Virus record (IMG/VR): IMGVR_UViG_3300028888_000113
Length of the DNA stretch: 64,000 nucleotides
From: a virus
Lineage: Duplodnaviria > Heunggongvirae > Uroviricota > Caudoviricetes
Direction: 5' to 3' (one strand)
Shown: positions 117 to 63,972 of the stretch, piece by piece
Numbering within the stretch: position 1 is the first letter of the stretch
Layout of the letters: each line of letters opens with the position of its first letter
Notes under the pieces: model-generated
The model's input: only the letters and a program-made list of their open reading frames with translations
Databases searched by the model: none
What the model was told of the DNA's origin: nothing
Made by a program: the position numbers and the translations under genes

Positions 117-971
117 ATGTGCAAAGGATTCAAGCAAATCTCCAACGACTTCTTTGAAAGCGACTATTGGCGTCAATCCCGTACTTACAATGATTGCGAA
201 GCTGTCCTGGATATTATCTATCAGGTCAGATTTGAGGCATCTGAGCATTCTGCTCGTATCGGAGGTCGCGAAGTTACATGGGGTCAGGCACAGTGGCCTG
301 CATCTGTGAGATTCCTTGCGGCACGTTGGCATTGGACTGAGAAAAAGGTTCGAGTATTCCTTTCTCAGTTAAGACGTAAAGGCATCATTGAGACAAGCGA
401 CTCTCAGGGTGTCAATCTTATTACCCTCAAGAAGTACCTCGTTCTTGCAGAAGAAGAAAGCAAGGGCACAGCAAAGGGCACAGAGAACGAATTGATTATC
501 AATGAGTTACAGGCTTTAAGGGCACAACTTGGGGCACAACCTATTCCAAAAGGGCACAGCAAGGGCACAAAACATGATAATGGAGAAATAGATTTATTTC
601 CCCCTTTATCCCCCAAAGGGGAAACTGTTTATGATTGGTCATTGTTATCTGATGATATGAGAGTGATTGCAGAAGAATGGCTTCAATATAAGCGCGAGAA
701 AAAGCAGACTTATAAGCCAAGCGGTTTCAAAACCTTCTGCAAGCGACTCATTCAACTCAGTGGTAATGATCCATCAAAAGCAAGGCTTATTATTGAGCAT
801 TCTATGGCCAATAATTACTCTGGTATTTTCGAATTAAAAGATAGAATAAATGAAACAGCCTCAGCAAATATCAGCAATAATCAAAAAGGACACGTTGCCG
901 ACGGCGACGTACATGAGCAGTCCATCAGAATCATTAGCCGTCTCTCAGCAGAGGGCAGCGATAGTGATTAA
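117..971 (+). CDS. Replication initiator-like protein (lambda O-like, winged-helix N-terminus) carrying internal iterons
   Basis: 284 aa. N-terminal wH-like segment (WHWTEKKVRVFLSQLRRKGIIE). Six copies of AAGGGCACA lie inside the coding sequence (464-572), as in lambda ori inside gene O. Confidence 0.45.
   Translation: MCKGFKQISNDFFESDYWRQSRTYNDCEAVLDIIYQVRFEASEHSARIGGREVTWGQAQWPASVRFLAARWHWTEKKVRVFLSQLRRKGIIETSDSQGVNLITLKKYLVLAEEESKGTAKGTENELIINELQALRAQLGAQPIPKGHSKGTKHDNGEIDLFPPLSPKGETVYDWSLLSDDMRVIAEEWLQYKREKKQTYKPSGFKTFCKRLIQLSGNDPSKARLIIEHSMANNYSGIFELKDRINETASANISNNQKGHVADGDVHEQSIRIISRLSAEGSDSD
464..572 (+). repeat. Iteron cluster (AAGGGCACA x6, direct) inside the rep-like gene
   Basis: Copies at 464, 476, 519, 532 (GGGGCACAA), 552 and 564, paired at ~12-bp spacing. 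Homologous to 61301-61380. Confidence 0.6.
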
Positions 972-5375: not shown

Positions 5376-6230
5376 ATGGAAGAAATAATTATCAACGGAA
5401 AAGCTCTCTACACACCGAAAGGTGCTGCAAGAGAGTATGCGGCAGTCGGGTGTAACTTCTACACTGGCTGTCCGCATAACTGCAGCTATTGCTATCTCAA
5501 GCGTGGTGTACTCAGCCATTCAATGGGTGGAACTGATGTAAAATTGAAATCATGCTTCAAAGGAGATATTAAAAATGCTATTAAAGTGTTTATCCATGAA
5601 TGCAATAAGTACATGGACTATCTGATGGAAACAGGAATATTCTTTTCTTTCAGTACAGATCCGTGTATTAACGAAACGATGCAACTTACATGGATGGCTT
5701 TGGAGCACTGTAACTCAAATAACATTCCTGCAATATTGCTCACTAAGAATGCAAAATTCCCTTTCTATGATGGATTTTATCAGCATTTCTTGAATGACAG
5801 TAATACGAAGAAGGAATTATTTCATTTCGGATTCACTCTCACAGGGCGTGACGATATGGAACCAGGAGCTACGACAAACTTAGAGCGTATTCAAGCAATG
5901 GAGTATCTGAAATGTATTGGATTCAAGACGTGGGCCTCCATCGAGCCTATCATAGATTTCAACAGTTCACTTTCTGTTATTGAGAAATCAATTAAGTGGT
6001 GCGATCATTACAAAATAGGTCTTCGTAGTGGAGTAAGTAAGGATTACTATGATCTTGATGAACTCACGGAATTTGTCTGTGCTGTAAATGACGAGGTTGA
6101 AGTTGCCAAAAGAGATTATGCCAGATCTCCAACGGTGTACTGGAAAGAGTCTGTAAAAAAGGTGTGTAAGATTCCTCATGTATATCCTGGGTATTGGGGT
6201 CATGTCGTAGGAAAAGATTATATATGGTAA
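5376..6230 (+). CDS. Radical SAM domain protein
   Basis: CPHNCSYC = CX3CX2C 4Fe-4S/SAM cluster motif near the N-terminus. 284 aa. Confidence 0.55.
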   Translation: MEEIIINGKALYTPKGAAREYAAVGCNFYTGCPHNCSYCYLKRGVLSHSMGGTDVKLKSCFKGDIKNAIKVFIHECNKYMDYLMETGIFFSFSTDPCINETMQLTWMALEHCNSNNIPAILLTKNAKFPFYDGFYQHFLNDSNTKKELFHFGFTLTGRDDMEPGATTNLERIQAMEYLKCIGFKTWASIEPIIDFNSSLSVIEKSIKWCDHYKIGLRSGVSKDYYDLDELTEFVCAVNDEVEVAKRDYARSPTVYWKESVKKVCKIPHVYPGYWGHVVGKDYIW

Positions 6231-10401: not shown

Positions 10402-10421
10402 AATCCCTAAATTTTAATTTG

Positions 10422-11606
10422 TTAATACCTGAAAACTTTTTTCTCTGTTATTTTGGTCAGACCATCGTCTAAGACTCCGAGTCTGAGTATTTCCTTTACC
10501 ATGAATAGCCTCCGTCTTATTCTGTAAGAAGCAGTATGCTGGAAGATTCCAAGATAGGAGTTGATACTTCTCAGCACTTTCTTCGGACTGGAGAAATCGA
10601 GCATTTTCAGCTTCAATTCTATTCTCTGGAGCGAGTGCCTTGAGATATAGATCCTCCAGGGCTTGATGAAGGAACCAAGAAACTCCACTCCCTGATGCAC
10701 TTCCGAAATCGTTAGTTTGCCTCTGTGTAGTTCCAATCCCAACTCTTCCTTGAGAAATCTCTGAATGTCTGGCACCAACGACAGAAGCCAATCTTTGTCC
10801 GATGACACTACGGCTGCATCGTCCACATATCTGCCGTAATAGCGACATTTCAGCACTCTCTTCATGAACTGGTCGAACACGTTCAGATAGACATTGCTGA
10901 ATAGTTGAGAGGTCAGGTTTCCTATCGGAAGACCCAATCCTTCCAACAGATTCAGCATTGACTTGGCTGGGTCGAGACCATCCCAATCCGAAGGATCGCC
11001 ACAGATGATGCAGTTCAATTTCGGATCGAGCATTACTATCACCTCTGTAAGATAGCAGACAAAGTCCATGTCGAGCCTGTCCTGCCATAGCGCGGGATGA
11101 TATTTGTTGATCCTGTGAGTGGCCATGTTCCTCAGAGACTTCAAGGCTATTTCCAACAGCCTGCGACGAACTATGTGCATGAAGTAGCCCCTGATGTCTA
11201 AGTGCATCACATAGCACTTGCGTTGCCAATTCCTCGATTCCTTCCTGCAGAAGTCCTCTATACGATGTATGCCGTAGTGGGTACCACGTCCCTTTATGCA
11301 ACTGTAAGAGTCTATGATAAACGTCCTCTCGTAGAGACCGTGCGTATAGTTGAAGTACAGGTGATGCACTATCCTGTCTCTGAACATTGCAGCGAAGATC
11401 TCTCTCTTCTTCGGATAATCGACAATGAAGCATTTCGACGGGAGAGGCTTGTAACGACGATAATACAAGTCGTCGCACAATTCTTCCATATTCCTTTTCA
11501 GGTCTTTTGCCCATTTCTTCACGTATGAGCGATTGGACTTGTGCTTCCGTGCGTCGTAGTAGGCAACATACAGGTCGAACAGAAGTCTCTCCCGTGTAAG
11601 AGTCAT
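10422..11606 (-). CDS. DGR reverse transcriptase
   Basis: RT motifs including YVDDAAV (motif C) and LGF..KPW. TR lies 38 bp upstream. 394 aa, typical DGR RT size. Confidence 0.9.
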   Translation of the reverse strand: MTLTRERLLFDLYVAYYDARKHKSNRSYVKKWAKDLKRNMEELCDDLYYRRYKPLPSKCFIVDYPKKREIFAAMFRDRIVHHLYFNYTHGLYERTFIIDSYSCIKGRGTHYGIHRIEDFCRKESRNWQRKCYVMHLDIRGYFMHIVRRRLLEIALKSLRNMATHRINKYHPALWQDRLDMDFVCYLTEVIVMLDPKLNCIICGDPSDWDGLDPAKSMLNLLEGLGLPIGNLTSQLFSNVYLNVFDQFMKRVLKCRYYGRYVDDAAVVSSDKDWLLSLVPDIQRFLKEELGLELHRGKLTISEVHQGVEFLGSFIKPWRIYISRHSLQRIELKLKMLDFSSPKKVLRSINSYLGIFQHTASYRIRRRLFMVKEILRLGVLDDGLTKITEKKVFRY

Positions 11607-11643
11607 GCTTCTCTATATTTAAAAGGATGATTGCAGTTGAGTG

Positions 11644-11821
11644 CTGAACCGGGCGCACCGCGAAGCCGTTGTACCGGTTGTTGTTGTTCTGAGGATTCAC
11701 CCCACCACTGTTGAAGTTCAAGTTCCGAGCGTTGGCTGCGGAGTTGAACGAAGCAGACCAGTAGTTGCCATTGCCGCCACGGTTGTTCCACGACGCGCCA
11801 TTGCCGTTGCCAGAGCAAGGG
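11644..11821 (-). repeat. DGR template repeat (TR)
   Basis: 178-bp stretch matching 12675-12852 with 19 mismatches. All 19 are at TR adenines on the coding (-) strand. TR translates N-rich (AAC codons) in the VR frame. Confidence 0.9.
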
Positions 11822-11978
11822 AAGAAGGCTTTTCGGTCACCGCCTTTTACGAAGACCACAATGGGTTGCACTAAGCAAGACAATGTGGCATCTTTGCTTT
11901 TTCCCGAATCACGAAGACTCAGGACGGATGACCTGTGAACTTCTATCTGAACCATCCTTATAGGTTTTACATTTGTTA

Positions 11979-12539
11979 TCAGAACATAGCAGAAACTTGT
12001 TGTCTCAACTGACGTAAGAACTCCCATGCCTCCATAGGAGATTTCGACTCAATGGGATATGACACTATCCTTGCGAGCACATCAGACATACGTGTGATCC
12101 TTGGTGCCGCCTCAGACACCTCACGATCCTCTCGCTTAGTCTTCTTCTGCTCATTCATCTGAAGAGATTCTTTCCAGTCATCGACACCTTTTCTGAAAGT
12201 CTCAGCGTCAACGTTTAAATATTCTTCTGGAAGAGGTACGATAATCTCGATGTGGTTGTCATCGACAGGATTGAACTTCACTGTTCCATCATTGGGAATA
12301 TACTTTCCCAAAGATGCGACAGGAAATCCTACCCATGCTTCAATGTAGTTGTCCTTTAACCTCTTTGCAGAGATATTCAATGGCTTGTTCTTTGCCTCGC
12401 CCATTGGGAACTTCGTCATCAGCCATGCGCTCCAGTCGTGTGCACGGTAGAAATTATTCTCTTTCAGAAGATGGATTACTCCATACTGATCAGAAGCCTG
12501 TCTGTTGCTTTCTATTTCAACGATTTCTGCTATTGTCAT
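11979..12539 (-). CDS. DGR accessory protein candidate (Avd position)
   Basis: 186-aa ORF located between target gene and TR, the canonical accessory-gene slot. No recognisable motif, so the call is positional only. Confidence 0.35.
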   Translation of the reverse strand: MTIAEIVEIESNRQASDQYGVIHLLKENNFYRAHDWSAWLMTKFPMGEAKNKPLNISAKRLKDNYIEAWVGFPVASLGKYIPNDGTVKFNPVDDNHIEIIVPLPEEYLNVDAETFRKGVDDWKESLQMNEQKKTKREDREVSEAAPRITRMSDVLARIVSYPIESKSPMEAWEFLRQLRQQVSAMF

Positions 12540-12580
12540 TTTTTCTCTTTTTAGTTTATTTATTCCCTCCCATTGCGGAG

Positions 12581-12626
12581 TGTGCCTTGTGGCCGCTTGT
12601 GGAGCGGCCTTGGTGGCACACCCCGA
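12581..12626 (-). other. GC-rich stem-loop immediately downstream of VR (DGR homing-associated hairpin candidate)
   Basis: GTGTGCC..GGCCGCT TGTGG AGCGGCC..GGCACAC nested inverted repeat ~50-90 bp 3' of the VR/IMH end. Confidence 0.5.
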
Positions 12627-12671
12627 ATGATTGGGATTGGTTTGTTCTCTCTTGGTTGGCCAAGATAGAAG

Positions 12672-13787
12672 TTACTGAACCGGGCGCACCGCGAAGCCGT
12701 AGCACCGGCTGCTGTAGCTCCGAGGAGTCACCCCACCACTGCTGAAGCTCAAGTTCCGAGCGTGGGCTGCGGAGTAGAACGAAGCAGACCAGTAGTAGCC
12801 AACGCCGCCACGGGGGTACCACGACGCGCCATTGCCGTAGCCAGAGCAAGGGCAGAAGAGAAGATTACCGTTAATCTTTGACTTCAAATACAAGCCTAAG
12901 ACGCCGTTTACGGTCACACGCTTATCTGTTGTAGCAGAGTCTATGACGGTGCCGTTAGCGTAAATGAAATCGCAATTTGCAAACAGTTCTGCGTACTCTT
13001 CTGTTGTCGGCATACGCCAAGGTGCACCGAGATTTACACGGGCAGCGTCCTGAGAAGCAGCGAGACTTGCCGTGATACCACAGCCAGGAGTCTGACCGTA
13101 GATAGAATCGGACTTATAGCCGTTACCAGCGTCATTCTTCGAGTTGTCCCATGTTCCGAAGTCGTGGTTGAAACTTGAGTTATCCTTTGGATTGAACATC
13201 TGAGTATTACCCCATGACACAAAAGAACACTCATATTGGAACTCAGAGGCAGCGAAGCCATTGGCCTGAGTAACGTCGATGTTCTTCTTTGCCCAGAGCA
13301 AACCAGATGGTAAGCCCATGTCAACGTACAGATCTTCCTGTACAGATGTTTTCTCCTGTCCGAGAATGCCGATGATGTTCCAGTTCGTACCGTCGTACTG
13401 TAACTGTACTACGGTCCGAGCCTTTACGACTCCTGCCTGCAGGGTATTACCCATGATCTTGATGGGCTTTGCACCTGTACTGTTCACGTTCAGTGTTGCT
13501 CCTGCTACGGCTATTGCAGACGTGAACAGAACGCTCACGATACCGTTTTTCAGAAGAATGAAGTCGCTGATGGCTACGGTCTTTGCCTGTGTCGTGGCTT
13601 CAGTGCTGCACGTTCCGATACCGTTACCAGCCTTTGCCATGTCGCGTACCAACTGCTGGGCAGGGTATTTCCCTGCGGGAGTACCGTCAGGATTAAATAT
13701 CATGACTGTCTGGGTAGCACCGGGAGCTGCGTTTGGCAATCCAGCCTGTACCGCTTTCAATACGTTTGCTGTTGAAATAGTGTCCAT
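12672..13787 (-). CDS. DGR target protein, C-terminal DUF1566/C-type-lectin-like variable domain (putative receptor-binding protein)
   Basis: C-terminus CSGYGNGASWYPRGGVGYYWSASFYSAAHARNLSFSSGGVTPRSYSSRCYGFAVRPVQ is encoded by the VR. ...YGFAVRPV is the characteristic ending of Bacteroides DGR CLec/DUF1566 targets. Confidence 0.8.
   Translation of the reverse strand: MDTISTANVLKAVQAGLPNAAPGATQTVMIFNPDGTPAGKYPAQQLVRDMAKAGNGIGTCSTEATTQAKTVAISDFILLKNGIVSVLFTSAIAVAGATLNVNSTGAKPIKIMGNTLQAGVVKARTVVQLQYDGTNWNIIGILGQEKTSVQEDLYVDMGLPSGLLWAKKNIDVTQANGFAASEFQYECSFVSWGNTQMFNPKDNSSFNHDFGTWDNSKNDAGNGYKSDSIYGQTPGCGITASLAASQDAARVNLGAPWRMPTTEEYAELFANCDFIYANGTVIDSATTDKRVTVNGVLGLYLKSKINGNLLFCPCSGYGNGASWYPRGGVGYYWSASFYSAAHARNLSFSSGGVTPRSYSSRCYGFAVRPVQ
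12675..12852 (-). repeat. DGR variable repeat (VR) at the 3' end of the target gene
   Basis: Homologous to the TR. Differs only at positions where the TR has A. The 3'-terminal 26 nt (GC-rich IMH-like) are identical to the TR. Confidence 0.9.
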
Positions 13788-38792: not shown

Positions 38793-38841
38793 GATGTTTT
38801 AATTGATAAGTTAATATTGATGATTTCAATGTTATCCTGAG

Positions 38842-38914
38842 TGGCGGGAAGCGGACTCGAACCGCTGACCTCAAGGCTATGATCCTCGCGAGCTACCAAC
38901 TGCTCCATCCCGCG
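38842..38914 (-). tRNA. tRNA-Met (CAT)
   Basis: I folded it by hand. Acceptor CGCGGGA/TCCCGCC (1-72 C.C mismatch), D-arm TGGAGCAGTTGGTAGCTCG, anticodon stem CGAGG/CCTTG with loop ATCATAG, T-loop TTCGAGT. Confidence 0.75.
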
Positions 38915-39085: not shown

Positions 39086-40777
39086 ATGGAGAAGTTTTCA
39101 GGATTAAAAATGCCCGATGGCGAGCCAATTCTGACTCAAGAGTATATAAATTCCCTCCAACAGCAGGCTATAGCGAAAAAACTAAGGAATGCTATCGTGC
39201 CACAGGCTGGCGGTCAGGAAAATATGCTCTCTATAAACGTGGATATTCTGATATGCGGTGGTAGCCGTGGTGGATCAAAGTCTTTCTCCCTGCTCATGGA
39301 AGCACTCAAGGATATTTTCAATCCTGATTTCCATGCAGCCGTTTTCCGAAACAACAAGAAAGCGATGGAGAAGCTTATTCGAGACTCACGAAAACTATAT
39401 TCTCAGTACGGCACCTACAACAAGTCTCAGTCGGATATGACCTGGAACTTCACGGCAGGGGGTACACTCGGATTCTATTACCATGATGACTCAGACGATG
39501 ACTTCAAGGAGCGTTTTCAGGGACAGGAATACGCATATATCGCCATCGACGAGATTACGCATATCTCATACAAGAAATTCAAATATCTTACAACTTGTAA
39601 CCGTAATGCCTACGGCATTAGAAATAGATTCTGGGGCACTTGTAACCCCGATCCTCGCTCTTGGGTACGTCAGTTCATTGACTGGTGGATCGACAAAGAC
39701 GGATATATTGATCCTGCAAGGGATGGAAAGGTACGCTATTGCTTCATGAAGGGCGAACGTGTCAATCAGATTGTCTGGGGTGACAGTAGGCATGAGGTTT
39801 ATCTCAAGTGCAAGGAAGAGATCGATGAATTGTGGAAGCCAGAGTTTGATGCTCTCGGACTTGACAAGGAGCAGACGATGGTGTTGTCTGTCGCTTTTGT
39901 GCGTGCAGACCTCGCACAGAACCCAATGCTTCTGCTTTCAGACCCTTCTTACCTGTCACGTCTTGCACAACAGGACAAAGGACAGGTGCTTCGTGACCTC
40001 AAGGCAAACTGGAATGCCTCTGAGGCTGGCGATGACATGATTTCATACGATGAACTTGAATCCATCTTCAACAACCCGCATCAGTATGGGGATGGTATCA
40101 GACGATGCACAGCGGATATTGCCCTTGAAGGTGGTGATAACCTTGTCATGTATCTTTGGATAGGATGGCATATAGCGGACTTCTGCTGCATAAACGTCAA
40201 TTCAAAGACGGCTGTCTCGGTCATCAGACGGAAACTGAGAGAGTGGGGAGTGGCAGAAGAGAATTTCTGCTATGACTACCAAGGATTAGGACAGCTCGTA
40301 AAGGGATTCTTCCCAGAGGCCATACCGTTCAACAACCAGTCAGCACCAATAGCGGAAGACGATGATGAATATGATGGCGTGAAGTACCTCTACAAAGACC
40401 TCAAATCGCAATGCGCGTACATTATTTATCGTAAACTCAAGGAAATGAACATATCCTTTGAGGAAAGCCTGCTCGACACGAAAGTATCAGGAAATGGCTA
40501 CGAAGATGTCCTGCTTCGAGACGTTCTGCAGAAAGAACGTCAGTCTTTACGTCGTGATCCCGACACGAAAGACAAAGGTTTCTGCCTCATGCCTAAGAAG
40601 AAGTCCAAACTGATTGTAGGACACTCGCCTGACTGGTGGGAGTCTCTTTATTTCCGTGCATACTTTGAGATAGCACAGCCTGTTCAGCTCAACATTGAAA
40701 ATGAGTGGATGCTCGGTGCAGAAATGGATATGGACTTAGTTGAAGATGATGATTTTGAATATGAAATGGAATTATAA
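39086..40777 (+). CDS. terL: Terminase large subunit
   Basis: N-terminal ATPase Walker A-like GGSRGGSKS, Walker B YIAIDEITH. 563 aa followed by the portal gene. Confidence 0.8.
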   Translation: MEKFSGLKMPDGEPILTQEYINSLQQQAIAKKLRNAIVPQAGGQENMLSINVDILICGGSRGGSKSFSLLMEALKDIFNPDFHAAVFRNNKKAMEKLIRDSRKLYSQYGTYNKSQSDMTWNFTAGGTLGFYYHDDSDDDFKERFQGQEYAYIAIDEITHISYKKFKYLTTCNRNAYGIRNRFWGTCNPDPRSWVRQFIDWWIDKDGYIDPARDGKVRYCFMKGERVNQIVWGDSRHEVYLKCKEEIDELWKPEFDALGLDKEQTMVLSVAFVRADLAQNPMLLLSDPSYLSRLAQQDKGQVLRDLKANWNASEAGDDMISYDELESIFNNPHQYGDGIRRCTADIALEGGDNLVMYLWIGWHIADFCCINVNSKTAVSVIRRKLREWGVAEENFCYDYQGLGQLVKGFFPEAIPFNNQSAPIAEDDDEYDGVKYLYKDLKSQCAYIIYRKLKEMNISFEESLLDTKVSGNGYEDVLLRDVLQKERQSLRRDPDTKDKGFCLMPKKKSKLIVGHSPDWWESLYFRAYFEIAQPVQLNIENEWMLGAEMDMDLVEDDDFEYEMEL

Positions 40778-57697: not shown

Positions 57698-58177
57698 TTG
57701 AATATGAAAATTGACATTTGCAAAGTAACCAGTAATCCAGATTTCGCAAGGATGGCTGCAGAATATCTTGCATACTCATTGCAGGACGTGAAGACGTATC
57801 AAAACCTCACCCCAAAGGAGCGAGAGATTATCAGCGAGGAGATGTTCAATAGCATTCAGCATCTTGACACAAGACAAATGTTCACCGAATTGAAACAGAA
57901 ACACCCAGACGCAATCTTGCTTTTCAGAATAGGTGATTTCTATGAGGCTCGCGACAAAGATGCAGAAGTCTGCTCAAGCATCCTTGGCATCACGCTTACG
58001 GTCAGAACTAACGACAAATTGGCAGGCTTCCCACATCATGCACTTGATACATATCTGCCAAAACTCATTCGTGCCGGCCATCGTGTAGCCATCTGCGATC
58101 AGTTGGAGGATCCGAAAATGACAAAGAAACTCGTAAAACGAGGCATCACAGAACTTGTCAGCCCCAGACTTACTTAG
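57698..58177 (+). CDS. Stand-alone MutS domain I (mismatch-recognition domain) protein
   Basis: [24 protein letters not shown]...ITLT.R...[32 protein letters not shown] aligns to the E. coli MutS N-terminus (HPEILLFYRMGDFYELF...PMAGIPYHAVENYLAKLV..GESVAICEQ..DP), including the mismatch-contacting Phe-x-Glu. 159 aa with no ATPase domain. Confidence 0.7.
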
Positions 58178-58233
58178 CCTCAGCCATTTTCCCATTATCG
58201 GGAGAATGGTGCTCTAACCAAAATTTTAAGAGT

Positions 58234-58929
58234 ATGAAAGAAAGAACGTTTTTACCCGTGAACTGTTGGGCAGCGGAAGATATTCCATCCAACAAAATCA
58301 TTGATGCAAATCCTGAGAATCTGAGCAATGCAGAGTTGCTTTCGATTATCCTTGGTACAGGTTCCGACAAAGAAACATCTGTTGACTTGGCGAGAAGGAT
58401 TCTCATGTCTTGCGACAATAATCTTGCAGAACTCTCTAAGAAAACACCTCGCCAACTCACATATATGCGTGGTGTCGGCAAGCAGAAAGCTGCAAAGATT
58501 ATTGCAGCAATGGAACTCGGAAAGCGCAGGCAGAATCAAATACTGTCTGATAAGCCTGACTTGGGTACGGCTTGCCGTATCTACAATCACATGCACCCAA
58601 TCATGCAGGATCTCGACGTTGAAGAGTTCTGGTGCCTTTTTATAAATCGTAACTACAAACTTATCAAGAAGTTCCGAGTGTCGAGAGGTGGACTTACAGA
58701 AACAGCCGTAGATATTCGTATCATCATGCGTGAGGCCGTTGTCTCAAATGCGACAATCCTTGCAGTATGTCACAATCACCCGTCTGGAAATCTTACTCCA
58801 TCTAAGTGTGATGACGAACTTACAACGTCAATCAAGCGTGCTTGTGAAGTAATGAGAATCTATTTCCTGGATCACGTTATCATTACAGATGGCGCATACT
58901 ACAGTTATCATGAGCAAGGGCGCATTTAG
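58234..58929 (+). CDS. radC: RadC-like JAB/MPN domain protein
   Basis: N-terminal HhH-like ELLSIILGTGSD and the catalytic JAMM motif HNHPSGNLTPSKCDDELT. Confidence 0.75.
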   Translation: MKERTFLPVNCWAAEDIPSNKIIDANPENLSNAELLSIILGTGSDKETSVDLARRILMSCDNNLAELSKKTPRQLTYMRGVGKQKAAKIIAAMELGKRRQNQILSDKPDLGTACRIYNHMHPIMQDLDVEEFWCLFINRNYKLIKKFRVSRGGLTETAVDIRIIMREAVVSNATILAVCHNHPSGNLTPSKCDDELTTSIKRACEVMRIYFLDHVIITDGAYYSYHEQGRI

Positions 58930-58990
58930 TCTTCTTTTTGACCACCTTTTTGACTGAGGTGGTCAAAACCATAACCAAACTTTTACGAAT

Positions 58991-60283
58991 ATGAATAAAA
59001 AAGATTTATTGAGTTATTGCTGGAAGCATAGTCTGTTCGGCAATGTCGTAACAACCGACGGGAAGAGTGTTGACATTTTAGATCCAGGATTGCACAATCG
59101 CAACGAAGGGCCTACGTTTTTCAATGCGAAAGTCAGATTCAACAACACTCTTTGGGTGGGTAACGCTCAGATTCTCGTAAATTCCTCAGATTGGTACTTG
59201 AATAGTTTTGATCGTAATCATAAGTACGACAATGTTATTCTTATCATCTGTGACATCGTGGACTCAGAGGTTACAAACTCGAAGGGTGAGACTATTCCGA
59301 TAGCACAAGGCATTATTCCTGAGAATGTCACTCGCAACTGCAATACTCTCATGGGACTTGGCGGCGATTTCCTCTGTCATAGTTATGTCATGGAGTATTC
59401 TACGACACTTATGCGTCATGCGTGGTTGTCTGCTATGCAAACAGAATGGCTTGAGCAGAAGACTGAGCATCTACGTCAGATCTACCGTCAGAACAAATCA
59501 ATGGAAGACACGTTCTTTATCTCTCTGTTCAGCAGCTTTGGCTTTGGTGCCAACGATGATGTAATGGAGAAACTTGCAAATGCGGTTCCTATGAGTGTTA
59601 TTGACAATTATCGCGACGATCTGTTTCAGATAGAGGCCATCATCTTAGGCCAGGCTGGCTTGATTACAGACATAGAGTGTGTTCCAGAGAAGTTTCATGA
59701 TAAAACCTTGATGGAAGGATATTTTCAGAGACTCCGTAACGAGTATCTGTATCTTGCCCATAAGTATTCGATGAAACCAATCTCTGCAAGATTCAAGCCG
59801 TTCAACCGACGCTTCTCCAGCCCTCATGTGTACCTGTCGATGCTTGCAAACCTCATTTACAGAAGATCTATCAGCAGCAGCATAGTCACTGGTCTTGCTT
59901 CTGCAAAGGAAGTCATGGATCAGCTCTTCACAAAGGCTACTCCATATTGGGAAATGCACAATCAGTTTGGTGCCATTACAAACAAGACAGAGAAGAAACT
60001 GAGTTTCGATAAGATGTCGTACATCATGGCTGCTTCCATCGTTCCGTTCCTCTTCTTCTATGGAAGAGAGAAGTCTAATGAGGAAATCTGTGACCGTGCT
60101 TTCGACATCATGGAGCAGATGAAGGTTTTCTCTACTGCAGAATCATCGTCTTTCGCCAAGCACGGATTGGAGCCGGCTACAGCAGGAGATACGATTGCGC
60201 TAACTCAGATGAAACGTGAGTATTGCCAGAAGCACGACTGCCTGCGTTGTCGCTTTGGCTTTGAGTTCATTAGAAAGCATTAG
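58991..60283 (+). CDS. Conserved hypothetical protein (430 aa)
   Basis: Long ORF ending in a Cys cluster (CQKHDCLRCRFGFEF). No motif I can assign. Confidence 0.4.
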   Translation: MNKKDLLSYCWKHSLFGNVVTTDGKSVDILDPGLHNRNEGPTFFNAKVRFNNTLWVGNAQILVNSSDWYLNSFDRNHKYDNVILIICDIVDSEVTNSKGETIPIAQGIIPENVTRNCNTLMGLGGDFLCHSYVMEYSTTLMRHAWLSAMQTEWLEQKTEHLRQIYRQNKSMEDTFFISLFSSFGFGANDDVMEKLANAVPMSVIDNYRDDLFQIEAIILGQAGLITDIECVPEKFHDKTLMEGYFQRLRNEYLYLAHKYSMKPISARFKPFNRRFSSPHVYLSMLANLIYRRSISSSIVTGLASAKEVMDQLFTKATPYWEMHNQFGAITNKTEKKLSFDKMSYIMAASIVPFLFFYGREKSNEEICDRAFDIMEQMKVFSTAESSSFAKHGLEPATAGDTIALTQMKREYCQKHDCLRCRFGFEFIRKH

Positions 60284-60615: not shown

Positions 60616-61035
60616 ATGAACAAAGTAGATTTAAGAAACGGCCTTGACTATTGCCGTAACTATATGATCTCGCAACTCACTCAGTATGTTCTTGAGCATG
60701 GTGAGGAAATGTGTGATTATTATCGTAACGAACATGGTATAGATGATGACGAGGTTCTTAAACTTATAGACCTCGCTGACTGCGGTTGCTATTTCTCGTT
60801 GCCACAGAAGTTCCAGGCAGAGAATAATGAAGATGATTACGAACATTCTGCTTTCTGGACGTTATATGTAATTAGGGAAAGCGATGGCGAGATCAATTTG
60901 ATGTATTATCGTTTCTATAACTACGGATTTGATTTCGACGATGAACTATCTGAGCCTGATCACGACTATGCAGCCAGCCTTCCTATTTCGGCACTGGAGT
61001 ATATATATGAAGCCGTCCTATCGATTCCAGATTAA
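60616..61035 (+). CDS. Acidic hypothetical protein (last cassette-array gene)
   Basis: 139-aa ORF followed by a terminal copy of the intergenic module (CTGCCGA-TTCG-TCGGCAG, TAACAACCAAA). Confidence 0.35.
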   Translation: MNKVDLRNGLDYCRNYMISQLTQYVLEHGEEMCDYYRNEHGIDDDEVLKLIDLADCGCYFSLPQKFQAENNEDDYEHSAFWTLYVIRESDGEINLMYYRFYNYGFDFDDELSEPDHDYAASLPISALEYIYEAVLSIPD

Positions 61036-61117
61036 GTCTTTTTAACTGCCGATTCGTCGGCAGTGCTAACAACCAAATAGTAAACTATATTCAAAATTGT
61101 ACAGAATGTGCGTTCGC

Positions 61118-61382
61118 TTGTGCCCTTCACTTGTGCCCTTGATTTCTCAAAGTGCATGTGTTTATCGGTGTTTAGTTGTGCCCTTTGTTGTGCCCTTTAA
61201 CTGGTAAATAATTGACAAATATTGCTTAGATATAATGTATTTTGTAAATAATATTTATAAAATATCGAATTTCTTTCCGAAGTCTTTACAAAATATGCCA
61301 CTTGGGCACAGCAAAGGGCACGGCGCTCTTTCTGATAATCAATGTGTTACAAGCATTTGGGGCACAACGTAGGGCACAAAAC
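61118..61382. promoter_or_regulatory. Second iteron locus / origin-like region: 4 direct TTGTGCCCTT + AT-rich spacer + 4 inverted AAGGGCACA
   Basis: TTGTGCCCTT at 61118, 61131, 61176 and 61187. ~100-bp AT-rich spacer. GGGCACA-type copies at 61304, 61314, 61359 and 61371. 61301-61380 is homologous to the iteron stretch 464-572 inside the rep-like gene. Confidence 0.55.
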
Positions 61383-61544
61383 GCGCGTGTATTTATAAGG
61401 TACGCACGTTAATATAATTATATAAATATATTAATATAATAATATAAAAATATAGGTTTCGATCCGAAGTTAAAATTGTGGTCTCTGGCTGTTAAATCTT
61501 CTAAAGCAGCACTATATTATAAAATAATATTATAACTTTGCATT

Positions 61545-62483
61545 ATGAAAGAATTGAGAGGGCTCACTTATGAGCAAAACAAGAAGTTTCGCTACGCAAT
61601 AGAGTGCGGCTACTTCGACACATGGGAGCAGGACCCTCGAAAGTGGAAGCATACTTTCATTGGTGCTTTCCTTTGGAAATACCCTTCAAGGGTAAAAGTC
61701 CTGAATATACTCAAGGATATTATCGGCAATATGCCTGTATGGGAAGACATCAATGATGAAACATTGCGCGACCTTATTGATGAACTTTCTGCAAATGAAC
61801 TTGCACCCGGATCTATACGAACGATGTGTGCAGAACTGAAAGCCGTACTAAACGAGAATGCCAGGCGCATACCTTCTACAGACTTCGCAAAGATTCTGTC
61901 TATCAAAGGTACGGCTACTCAGTCCACTTATCTCACAGTCCACGAAATGGAATTGTTCTTGTCTTATGTTCCAAAAACAGATATTGAGCATTTCGTACAT
62001 CGTACCTTCTGTGTGTCTATGCTTACTGGCGCACGTCAGGTTGACGCTGCCCGTCTTACGATAAGTAACTGTGACATGGAAACAAACATGCTGTCCTATG
62101 TTCCTCAGAAAACTCCAGGGCTTATCGTCAGAGTTCCCGTTGATGAAAGACACGGCTTGCGCAATTTCCTTGCCGACGTGAATCTTGAGCCGTGTTGCCT
62201 TGATACGTTCAATGATGTGCTTAGAAGAATATGCAGCGAGATAGGAATTGAAACGGTATGTACCGTTGTCAAGGCAGGAAAGAATATCACAGAACCCAAA
62301 TGGAAACTTGTCAGCTCTCACACGGCCAGACGAACGTTTGCCACGAACCTCTATCTTGCTGGTGTATCTCTTGAAGACATAGCAATGATGATGGGACACG
62401 GAAAGAATATTGAAACGACTAAGCGGTATGTCTGTGCAGAGCGCACACTGAATCCAAATGTCATGTCTTACTTCCAGCCATAG
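61545..62483 (+). CDS. Tyrosine recombinase (Bacteroides-type integrase family)
   Basis: C-terminal catalytic signature SSHTARRTFATNLYLAGVSLEDIAMMMGHGKNIETTKRY (HxxR...GH...RY). Co-directional with the 50-61 kb array. Confidence 0.7.
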   Translation: MKELRGLTYEQNKKFRYAIECGYFDTWEQDPRKWKHTFIGAFLWKYPSRVKVLNILKDIIGNMPVWEDINDETLRDLIDELSANELAPGSIRTMCAELKAVLNENARRIPSTDFAKILSIKGTATQSTYLTVHEMELFLSYVPKTDIEHFVHRTFCVSMLTGARQVDAARLTISNCDMETNMLSYVPQKTPGLIVRVPVDERHGLRNFLADVNLEPCCLDTFNDVLRRICSEIGIETVCTVVKAGKNITEPKWKLVSSHTARRTFATNLYLAGVSLEDIAMMMGHGKNIETTKRYVCAERTLNPNVMSYFQP

Positions 62484-62485
62484 TC

Positions 62486-63712
62486 TTAGGGCAGCTCACT
62501 GCCCACCAAATAACCAATAACTCTTCTGACGGCATTATCAATCTTTCGCTGATCGGTGGCCATATATCGCGACGTAACATTCTTAGCCCATGAGTGGCCG
62601 AGGCACATGCCTATAGTTCGCTCAGATATATCAAGGTCATTGGCAGCGATAGAACCGAACGAGTATCTGGCTGAGTAAAGGGTAATCTCAGGACATATAG
62701 GCTCATACTCCATCTTACGGAGTTTTCCTACTTTGTCCTTTACCTTATGAGAAGGTCCAACCTTCTGCAGAGCATCATTGCAGGCTCTTGCGAACGAACG
62801 ATAGGAGTTTCTGCAGTCCATAAATCCGGTGAGCCATCCTTCATCCGATGGATAGCGATCAATGATTTCTTGCGCCTCTGGAAGTACAGGCAGCGTGATT
62901 GTCCTAATCTTTGTGGAACCTTGCTTGTTGGTCTTCTGCCTTACGAATGTCAGATGACCGTCTTTTATTGCGTCTGATTTCAGACTCAGCAGATCTACGG
63001 GGTTGATGCCAGCAAGGTAGAAACTCAGAAAGAAGAAGTCAACGTATGGCTTCTGCCATGACTCGCAAGGGTAGTCACGCAGTCTTCTGAGGTCTTCAAC
63101 GGATATATTGTTTGGAACGGTTTCTTCTTCCACGATATGATAATCCAAGAAGGGATAGTTCTGTGTAAGGCCACGCTTTCGTGCCCAATTGAAGACGGCA
63201 CGTATATTTCGCAGTTCCTTGCCGACACCGTTGATACTCATTCCTTCTTCTATATAGTGTGATCTGAACGATTCTATCCACTCTTTATCTATTGACAGGC
63301 CTGCCTTGCTATCAAAGTCCAGGACCTTACGGGCTGTCAGTTCATAGATGGATCGTGTTTGTTCCGTTTTTGTTCCGGCAAACTCGTAGATGTAATCGGA
63401 TAGGGTAGAGGTTTTCGGTACCATGCCGAAGACTTTCTCTTGGATTTCCTTCTTGAGTTGTTTGTTATCAGTCTTGGATAGTTCAGACTGCAGGCACAGA
63501 ACTTCAATGTCAGCAAGATACTTACCGAGAAGTGTAGTCTTAGCTTTCCCAGCTTTATCAGCTTTGGGAAAGAGCATACCAACCAGTTTGTCGGTAGTAG
63601 TGAGGCCCGTATTCACGAAGAAACGGCCTTGCTTGTTCTTTACTACGACGTACACAGGATATGTGCCGTCAGAGTTAGATCTCGTTGTGTCAACGTAAGG
63701 ATGGATTCTCAT
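62486..63712 (-). CDS. Tyrosine integrase with N-terminal Arm-DNA-binding domain, adjacent to tRNA-Gly
   Basis: 408 aa. N-terminal arm-binding-like domain, SAM-like core-binding domain, catalytic LYSARYSF...LGHS...TSRY. Lies 190 bp from the 3' end of tRNA-Gly. Confidence 0.8.
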   Translation of the reverse strand: MRIHPYVDTTRSNSDGTYPVYVVVKNKQGRFFVNTGLTTTDKLVGMLFPKADKAGKAKTTLLGKYLADIEVLCLQSELSKTDNKQLKKEIQEKVFGMVPKTSTLSDYIYEFAGTKTEQTRSIYELTARKVLDFDSKAGLSIDKEWIESFRSHYIEEGMSINGVGKELRNIRAVFNWARKRGLTQNYPFLDYHIVEEETVPNNISVEDLRRLRDYPCESWQKPYVDFFFLSFYLAGINPVDLLSLKSDAIKDGHLTFVRQKTNKQGSTKIRTITLPVLPEAQEIIDRYPSDEGWLTGFMDCRNSYRSFARACNDALQKVGPSHKVKDKVGKLRKMEYEPICPEITLYSARYSFGSIAANDLDISERTIGMCLGHSWAKNVTSRYMATDQRKIDNAVRRVIGYLVGSELP

Positions 63713-63901
63713 TTGAGTTGAATTTTGTTTGTTAATACTTGCTGACCATTATTTCGGTCAGCATTCTGATTGCTGTTTGATTTGCTGACTTTTTTCAGCC
63801 CTCAAAAACCCGCAAAAACGGCATTTTTCAACTCAGATTTGCTTATCTCTAAGCCTTTTCTTTCATAGGTTTTCGGCGTAACCGCCTGATTATCAATGTA
63901 G

Positions 63902-63972
63902 AGCGGAATACGGGAATCGAACCCGCCTCCCAGGCTTGGGAAGCCCGTGCACTACCGATGTGCTAATTCCGC
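63902..63972 (-). tRNA. tRNA-Gly (CCC), probable prophage attachment site
   Basis: I folded it by hand. Acceptor GCGGAAT/ATTCCGC, D-arm GCAC-ATCGGTA-GTGC, anticodon stem CGGGC/GCCTG with loop TTCCCAA, T-arm GCGGG-TTCGATT-CCCGT. Confidence 0.85.

Follow-up and report, generated by a model that had tools for sequence, protein, structure and literature searches.

The DNA analysed here, a stretch of 64,000 nucleotides from the IMG/VR virus record IMGVR_UViG_3300028888_000113 (hereafter the window), is an integrated prophage of a rumen Prevotella and carries two arrays of the short repeat GGGCACA, one inside the replication initiator-like gene rep (locus 1) and one in non-coding DNA directly upstream of a tyrosine recombinase gene (locus 2). 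The two arrays share their anatomy and are paralogous, locus 2 is conserved in relatives of the phage, and the repeat type of locus 2 matches that of the rep gene in the same genome and, with it, the recognition helix of the Rep protein. Most likely, both loci are arrays bound by the Rep initiator, and we put at roughly 60% the probability that locus 2 is a second origin-like site, bound by Rep and able to initiate. That Rep is the binder, and that either locus would fire as an origin, we infer from features of the sequences compared below. The arrangement would extend a known design and not reveal a new one, its layout being known from phages lambda and SPP1.

Two arrays of one repeat module

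The features that make up the two loci are as follows (related loci are cited by L numbers, and individual protein homologues by P numbers, throughout).

117..971, + strand: rep, 284 aa, replication initiation O-like; winged-helix domain at residues 1-107 with the recognition helix at 75-87, linker at 108-169, then a helical C-terminal domain
462..570, + strand: locus 1, six GGGCACA iterons in three pairs (464/476, 520/532, 552/563), in the linker-coding part of rep
494..511, + strand: inter-pair box GATTATCAATGAGTTACA, family consensus ATCAAnGnGTTA, kept in the rep genes of relatives and in the non-coding copies at locus 2
570..624, + strand: moderately AT-rich stretch 3' of the iterons, then the TTTCCCCCTTTATCCCCCAAAGGGGAAA element, which holds a 10-nt inverted repeat
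61046..61063, + strand: hairpin CTGCCGATTCGTCGGCAG after the open reading frame 60616..61035, a probable terminator, at the left edge of an intergenic region of ~510 nt
61118..61197, - strand: left arm of locus 2, one inverted ori module, with GGGCACA iterons starting at 61189, 61177, 61132 and 61119
61198..61300, strand not assigned: AT-rich centre of locus 2, ~81% AT, within which 61226-61265 is 92.5% AT
61301..61380, + strand: right arm of locus 2, one ori module oriented like locus 1, with iterons starting at 61304, 61316 (GGGCACG, one mismatch), 61360 and 61372
61335-61352, + strand: box GATAATCAATGTGTTACA in the right arm of locus 2
61381..61455, + strand: GC-rich clamp ACGCGCGTGTATTTATAAGGTACGCACG, then a 40-mer of 100% AT (61415-61454)

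Across both strands of the window there are 14 copies of GGGCACA, 13 of which fall in two clusters that together span ~370 nt; shuffles of the window that preserve dinucleotides gave a mean of 5.4 copies and a maximum of 12, and never reached 14. A preliminary description of this DNA had held that a similar density of the motif elsewhere in the host genome would speak against its reading; outside the two clusters, the window is essentially free of the motif. It had also described the second locus as four direct copies, an AT-rich stretch and four inverted copies, which is what we found, except that one + strand copy reads GGGCACG; in near-identical variants of the same phage the equivalent position carries a perfect GGGCACA. 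In both loci the copies are paired at 11-13 nt, and the start distance from pair to pair is 56-58 nt in locus 1 and in each arm of locus 2. The homology that it had proposed between 61301-61380 and 464-572 is likewise real and covers 464-540, with identity residing mostly in the repeats and an 18-nt box (locus 1, GATTATCAATGAGTTACA; locus 2, GATAATCAATGTGTTACA) and with the intervening spacers diverged. Read as its reverse complement, the left arm aligns as a third copy of the same module. As judged from these alignments, locus 2 is an intergenic paralogue of the locus 1 module, present in two copies in inverted orientation.

Structurally, locus 2 sits in the ~510-nt gap between the terminator-like hairpin and the recombinase start, and the top two AT-rich 40-mers and 60-mers of the window both lie in it, flanking the right arm (the 40-mers being 61415-61454 and 61226-61265). 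Within the AT-rich centre there is an 11-nt perfect inverted repeat (TATTTTGTAAA/TTTACAAAATA), and the clamp and AT tract that follow the right arm are kept in L009 and L340. After the locus 1 repeats, the best 40-mer reaches 72.5% AT, the 96th percentile of the window. An Rfam scan of 60900-61600 gave nothing near the gathering score, with miRNA-like matches that merely mirror the inverted arms, and the near-identical locus 2 variants have very few variable sites, too few to relate substitutions to the repeat cores. Inside rep, a further element, CCCCC(T)TTATCCCCC / GGGG, stands 3' of the repeats (window 597-624) and encodes PPLSPKGE. The element or related C-runs with A-rich tracts occur in L010 (~5840-5870), L341 (~2160-2190 and ~2360-2390) and L008 (7468-7500), and since in L010 and L341 it is non-coding copies of locus 2 that such CCCCC runs come after, this element may belong to the origin and not just to the coding sequence.

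The 60 kb that the preliminary description had set between the loci applies to the integrated prophage only, because it arises from integration at a tRNA-Gly gene and does not belong to the replicon itself. In the circular (attP) form, with the gene order RadC ... locus 2, recombinase, integrase, attP, early operon, rep, locus 2 lies ~14 kb upstream of the rep repeats; in relatives the distance between the two loci is 9-19 kb.

Rep, its recognition helix and the repeat types of relatives

Rep matched PHROG 678, 'replication initiation O-like' (E 3e-11), and also DnaD-like loader families; no Pfam family was matched at E<=0.01, and the Rep profile had no significant match among PDB sequences. 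By tblastn against INPHARED, residues 188-263 were 34% identical to a 'replication protein O' of a Pasteurella phage (E 3e-4), and the N-terminal part shared 47% identity with gp35 of BS-TP2, a cultured Bacteroides phage. A scan of GTDB species genomes with the Rep alignment yielded no confirmed relative, and blastn of both window ends against INPHARED no useful ones. In an AlphaFold model built with 36 homologues (mean predicted local distance difference test score, 63.5), the N-domain folds as a winged helix (helices, 64-71 and 75-87; beta wing, 91-104), residues 108-169 are disordered and the C-domain is helical, and the locus 1 repeats encode exactly the disordered segment. Because these repeats are read in the codon contexts KGT, KGT, RAQ, GAQ, GHS and KGT, that is, in all three reading frames, and because relatives carry other repeats at the same place, the constraint acts on the DNA and not on the peptide. 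Six repeats within a winged-helix initiator-like gene, as with lambda ori inside O, had been the first claim of the preliminary description, and the PHROG 678 match, the modelled winged helix and the use of three frames bear it out.

Immediately 3' of rep, and overlapping its end, is a gene for a DUF6633 protein (850-1473, + strand), which always takes this position, in close as in distant relatives (including L342, L343 and L345). For the C-terminal domain of Rep its product is a candidate partner, for example a helicase loader; among the neighbouring open reading frames of the window, PHROG annotation found no phage-encoded DnaB-type helicase or loader.

Among IMG/VR homologues of Rep the N-domain is highly conserved, yet different repeats occupy the same linker position: GGGCACA in the window, L001, L002, L004 and L013, TCACACA in L003, L005, L011 and L012, and GACACA in L006 and L014. 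Being coding sequence, the repeats reveal their type in the protein, and we surveyed it in 61 Rep homologues that represent clusters of 90% identity. The repeat type was predicted by the residue at position 76, next after W.W[TS]E where the recognition helix begins, in 58/58 of the proteins with K, W or R there, as listed below.

K at position 76: G-type (GGGCACA), 15 representatives
W at position 76: T-type (TCACACA), 21 representatives
R at position 76: D-type (GACACA; (T/C)GA triplet), 22 representatives
M or A at position 76: yet other repeats, 3 representatives

Such agreement between helix residue and repeat type is what a cognate pair of protein and site would predict. The C-terminal domains of Rep, by comparison, are mosaic and fall into two types, independent of repeat type. 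In two homologues (P0028 and P0032) a C-terminal domain of ~90% identity is fused through an asparagine-rich linker to a wholly different N-domain, PF19808, and whole DNA-binding domains appear to have been swapped within this initiator family.

Comparison with related phages, which the preliminary description had named as a check on the second locus, placed that locus in diverged relatives as well. A repeat cluster of the same modular design precedes homologues of the 312-aa recombinase in two long IMG/VR contigs, and wherever locus 2 occurs in diverged relatives it lies upstream of the recombinase gene and its repeats are of the type seen in the rep gene of that record. The pairings found (repeat type in rep, then in locus 2) are the following.

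Window: G and G
IMGVR 3300028591_000020: T and T (TCACACA)
IMGVR 3300028591_000184: D and D (TGACACA)
ERZ28653736 scaffold_1234: G and G; K-type Rep, G predicted, eight GGGCACA found
SRR32865901_1604: G and G; K-type Rep, G predicted, six GGGCACA found
Recombinase P0094 with W-type Rep P0013: T and T; T predicted, six TCACACA found, the two presumably on one record

Matched repeat types are thus seen in five genomes with both loci on one record and in one inferred pair, and all three of the predictions of locus 2 repeat type that were made from the Rep type before look-up held (3/3). Both loci share the spacings of 12 nt and 44 nt as well as the spacer box. A degenerate third repeat, CCGCACA, is specific to the lineage of P0013/P0094 and is found in both of its loci, which points to concerted evolution. 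Repeat identity is kept although the number and orientation of locus 2 modules vary between genomes, with one module in L009, two direct modules in L010 and two inverted modules in the window, L337, L340 and L341. Locus 2 is also retained where recombinase identity is only 59-79%. Upstream of two more distant recombinase homologues, L029 (57% identity) and L030 (42%), there are no repeats, so it is the Rep family, not the recombinase, that locus 2 accompanies. The locus 2 spacer box of relatives forms a near-perfect palindrome, TAACACATTGTGTTA (L009 5770-5790; L010 5555-5575), with half-sites that resemble the repeats (NNACACA); Rep, or some other protein, may use this box as an additional binding site.

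More widely, we scanned IMG/VR for patterns of GGGCACA pairs and of CACA motifs spaced 12/44/12, each of which gave at least 120 matches, a sampling that does not amount to an exhaustive count of second loci. At least ~27 contigs, many of them from the human gut, encode a Rep that is 47% identical in the N-domain and has seven in-gene GGGCACA copies (2+3+2). BS-TP2 (PQ571275.1 gp35) belongs to this family, and its loci include L039, L043, L048, L052, L053, L058, L066, L074, L092, L094, L097, L099 and L104. A second Rep family, of ~460 aa, carries 10-13 GGGCACA copies in three frames, followed by an A-rich tract and a CCCCC element (L042 6229-7623, L100 8173-9552, L035, L070, L096, L110, L112, L129, L139 and L140). 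Its N-terminal sequence is different and had no tblastn match to the Rep of the window, and the two families represent either convergence on one motif or homology too remote to detect.

Possible roles of locus 2

In the mechanism that we favour, the N-terminal winged-helix domain of Rep would read a 7-bp site, NNNCACA, the variable 5' triplet of which (GGG here) would be set mainly by residue 76 of the recognition helix (K here). Such sites would be used in pairs 12 bp apart, in groups split by a fixed 44-bp gap that holds the conserved box. Locus 1, within the part of rep that encodes the disordered inter-domain linker, would be the ancestral origin, and locus 2 a duplicated module in non-coding DNA next to the genes for the recombinase and the integrase, at ~14 kb from rep in the circle, its modules lying back to back around, and adjoining, what should be the most easily melted DNA of the element. 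The initiator would bind locus 2 too, and locus 2 would act as a second initiator-dependent origin, the equivalent of SPP1 oriR.

Among known systems, ori-lambda lies within gene O (PMC6022878, PMC7466680), and locus 1 resembles it in having repeats in the initiator gene, in the part that encodes the linker between a DNA-binding N-domain and a recruiting C-domain. As in lambdoid O proteins, repeat specificity co-varies with the N-terminal domain and the C-terminal domains are exchangeable. Rep has the plan of N-domain, linker and C-domain, the in-gene repeats constrained as DNA and the co-variation of repeats with the N-domain that characterize initiators of the lambda O type, but its sequence relation to lambda O is weak and partial (PHROG 678; 34% identity to the Pasteurella O protein over the C-terminal part), with no match to a Pfam O family. 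Lambda further differs in having four 19-bp iterons with internal dyad symmetry and one origin, as against 7-bp motifs paired 12 bp apart and a second, intergenic copy here, and the host here is a Bacteroidota bacterium.

Two clusters of the same short repeat, ori and crr, are also found a few kb apart in the satellite phage P4, where both are bound by the alpha protein and crr is needed in cis; alpha, a fusion of primase, helicase and initiator, is unrelated to the small winged-helix Rep, and P4 ori is not known to lie in a part of the alpha gene that encodes a linker. In the plasmids P1 (oriR/incA) and F (ori2/incC), a second array of initiator-binding repeats, outside the origin, can pair with it (handcuffing) and control initiation. 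The arrays of these iteron plasmids flank rep within 1-2 kb, and the control array is without an unwinding element, whereas the second array here is 9-19 kb away and adjoins the most AT-rich DNA of the element. The nearest cultured relative, BS-TP2, encodes in gp35 (PQ571275.1) a protein annotated 'replication initiation O-like' whose N-domain is the 47% identical one; its record has no origin or repeat feature annotated, and no second locus was found for its subfamily among the matches listed.

The closest known design is that of SPP1, in which gp38 binds repeats in oriL, inside gene 38, and in the intergenic oriR, ~13 kb apart in the circular genome (PMC6316719). Shared with the phage studied here are an in-gene and an intergenic array with the same repeats in both, at ~13 kb in SPP1 and 9-19 kb here, an AT-rich unwinding element at the second array, matched here by the top two AT-rich 40-mers, and nearby genes for an exonuclease, an annealing protein and SSB (PMC6316719). 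The resemblance appears to be one of design and not of family membership: tblastn of Rep against 50,697 INPHARED phage records (E<=1e-3) returned ten records, none of them SPP1, whose presence in the collection was not confirmed. SPP1 is a virulent phage, as opposed to an integrating prophage here, where locus 2 often has inverted modules.

For SPP1, oriR has been proposed to stall replication forks and to trigger the switch to concatemeric replication (PMC6316719, PMC3485210), and a barrier of this kind is one form of the most serious alternative to a second origin, which we regard as unlikely on balance. Locus 2 could bind Rep without initiating, either as a site of titration or handcuffing, paired with the in-gene origin so that initiation is limited, like P1 incA or F incC, or as a Rep-bound fork barrier that stalls theta replication and triggers recombination-dependent concatemers. 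The matched repeat types fit such a role equally well, a RecT-like protein, an exonuclease, SSB and NinB encoded just upstream of rep make up the restart toolkit of the SPP1 model (PMC6316719, PMC3485210), and relatives that showed no locus 2 among the matches listed keep the in-gene array, possibly as their sole origin. However, the extreme AT-richness adjoining the repeats, which is kept in several relatives, resembles an unwinding element, and neither a barrier nor a sink needs one.

The far better unwinding sequences of locus 2 could also be taken to mean that it is the only real origin, with the in-gene repeats autoregulatory and Rep blocking transcription of its own gene; the gap in which locus 2 lies, between the terminator hairpin and the recombinase promoter, is apparently untranscribed. 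We consider this improbable. It is the in-gene array that is universally conserved, in distant relatives and in the ~460-aa Rep family, for which no second locus appeared among the matches listed; if locus 2 were the only origin, the phages that show no second locus would have no recognisable one, and in-gene arrays do fire in lambda and at SPP1 oriL (PMC6022878, PMC6316719).

The preliminary description had further offered locus 2 as the remnant of a second, related replicon beside the integrase, and as a decaying, non-functional piece of a second rep gene it would explain why the right arm is clearly rep-derived, down to the box that encodes I-N-E-L in rep, and why CCCCC elements, which encode PPLSP in rep, are present in some locus 2 copies. 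Decay is hard to reconcile with what surrounds these traces, and we hold such an origin of locus 2 to be very improbable: no rep-like reading frame exists around it, 7/8 of its repeats are perfect (and the eighth is so in close variants) despite diverged spacers, it is kept in phages whose recombinases are only 59-79% identical, its repeats change with the cognate Rep across three specificities, and its architecture has been rearranged between one, two direct and two inverted modules without loss of repeats.

Least probable of all is that the repeats are sites of the adjacent 312-aa recombinase, forming a dimer-resolution site or an invertible segment, with their likeness to the rep repeats coincidental or secondary: locus 2 is always directly upstream of the recombinase gene and an AT-rich segment separates its inverted arms in the window, L337, L340 and L341, as in the recombinase-controlled invertible promoters of Bacteroides, but L029 and L030 lack such repeats, inversion is not a conserved feature because L009 and L010 have direct copies throughout, genomes and families with no second locus among the matches listed contain the same motif within rep, the repeat type follows the recognition-helix residue of Rep, and direct 7-mer pairs 12 bp apart are unlike the core site of a tyrosine recombinase. 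Assignment of locus 2 as a Bacteroidales-type invertible switch was considered and rejected, the conserved flanking inverted repeats of such switches being replaced by direct copies in L009 and L010 and absent from L029 and L030.

Several points weigh against locus 2 as a second origin. Which locus would melt is not obvious, the AT-rich flank of locus 1 being modest, and cumulative GC skew, which the preliminary description had suggested as a way to locate the origin, is uninformative, with its maximum (7567) and minimum (49678) at switches of gene orientation and at neither locus. The sequences behind the match of helix residue to repeat type are not phylogenetically independent, and loci 9-19 kb apart could be partly co-inherited or homogenised by gene conversion. 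In the IMG/VR pattern scans, no contig of the wider relatives had a second GGGCACA stretch among the matches listed, so locus 2 would not be needed for replication in the family at large. Finally, sequence alone does not separate firing, fork stalling or handcuffing at locus 2.

Beyond the question of firing, the clade may constitute a natural set of mutually orthogonal initiator/origin pairs, in which residue 76 (K, W or R) would re-target Rep to GGG-, TCA- or (T/C)GA-CACA and the two origins would be kept matched by concerted evolution, that is, by gene conversion together with selection; we advance this tentatively, at somewhat less than even odds. If true, it would provide a simple, testable code of protein-DNA recognition for a winged-helix initiator family that has no Pfam model, and the two-copy design with its switching of specificity would serve replicon incompatibility or immunity among co-resident Prevotella prophages. 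Our literature search found no paper describing replication origins of Bacteroidota phages. The origin anatomy put forward here, in which NNNCACA sites are paired at 12 bp and a gap of constant length (44 bp) holds a conserved box, is transferable to relatives. The repeat type is legible from the Rep sequence, one residue is predicted to set specificity, and the second origin-like site has its parallel in SPP1 oriR. This anatomy could guide the annotation of many phage contigs from the rumen and the human gut, yield candidate parts for Prevotella and Bacteroides vectors and provide a natural system in which to study how an initiator and two origin copies change specificity together.

Prophage, integration site and neighbouring genes

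The right-hand part of the window holds the integration functions, given here in order.

61545..62483, + strand: 312-aa tyrosine recombinase (PF00589), directly downstream of locus 2; part of the neighbourhood, not demonstrably of the replication system
62486..63712, - strand: 408-aa phage integrase (PF13102, phrog_1)
63889..63972, - strand: attR, the right prophage junction, overlapping the 3' half of tRNA-Gly(CCC) (tRNA at 63901-63972, ARAGORN)

In an attP-form relative from IMG/VR, only the 3' half of this tRNA is shared, after which come genes that are found upstream of rep in other relatives. The identical 312-aa recombinase protein occurs on >20 metagenomic contigs, some of which continue into the host genes DUF5687, LolA, FtsK and TilS, the FtsK being 83-84% identical to that of rumen Prevotella genomes; in L157, the identical recombinase is followed by the left-end genes of the phage. 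Some metagenomes, among them ERZ27257205 and ERZ28019198, contain the integrated as well as the attP form. About 11 kb of the left end are absent from the window and present in L151, which gives a whole element of ~75 kb. In relatives, the early operon upstream of rep encodes a RecT-like annealing protein, an exonuclease, a methyltransferase, an SNF2 helicase, SSB and NinB, and the set of RecT-like protein, exonuclease, SNF2, SSB and NinB is what would be expected of a lambda- or SPP1-like module of replication and recombination.

The 312-aa and 408-aa tyrosine recombinases are convergent and stand side by side, and it is the 408-aa protein that looks like the integrase. The 312-aa protein, which is conserved in the clade, is without an arm-binding N-domain; dimer resolution is one possibility for its role. 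Just before its ATG is a TAnnTTTG box, which we take to be the -7 promoter element of Bacteroidota. Upstream of locus 2 (57698-60283, + strand) are chromosomal-looking genes, among them RadC (58234..58929) and DUF2851 (58991..60283). Variants (L153-L159) carry MutS_I-like and WYL_2 proteins at this place, and gene order varies among otherwise near-identical phages.

Elsewhere in the window, a phage-borne tRNA-Met (CAT) lies at 38841-38914 on the - strand, between the structural genes and a + strand block that starts at 39086. A diversity-generating retroelement occupies 10414-13787 on the - strand, with a reverse-transcriptase open reading frame at 10422..11606 (the identical gene in L151 matches RVT_1). 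Its template repeat is at ~11640-11810, and its variable repeat, at ~12672-12850, falls in the 3' end of the open reading frame 12672..13787; the two repeats differ almost exclusively at the A positions of the template.

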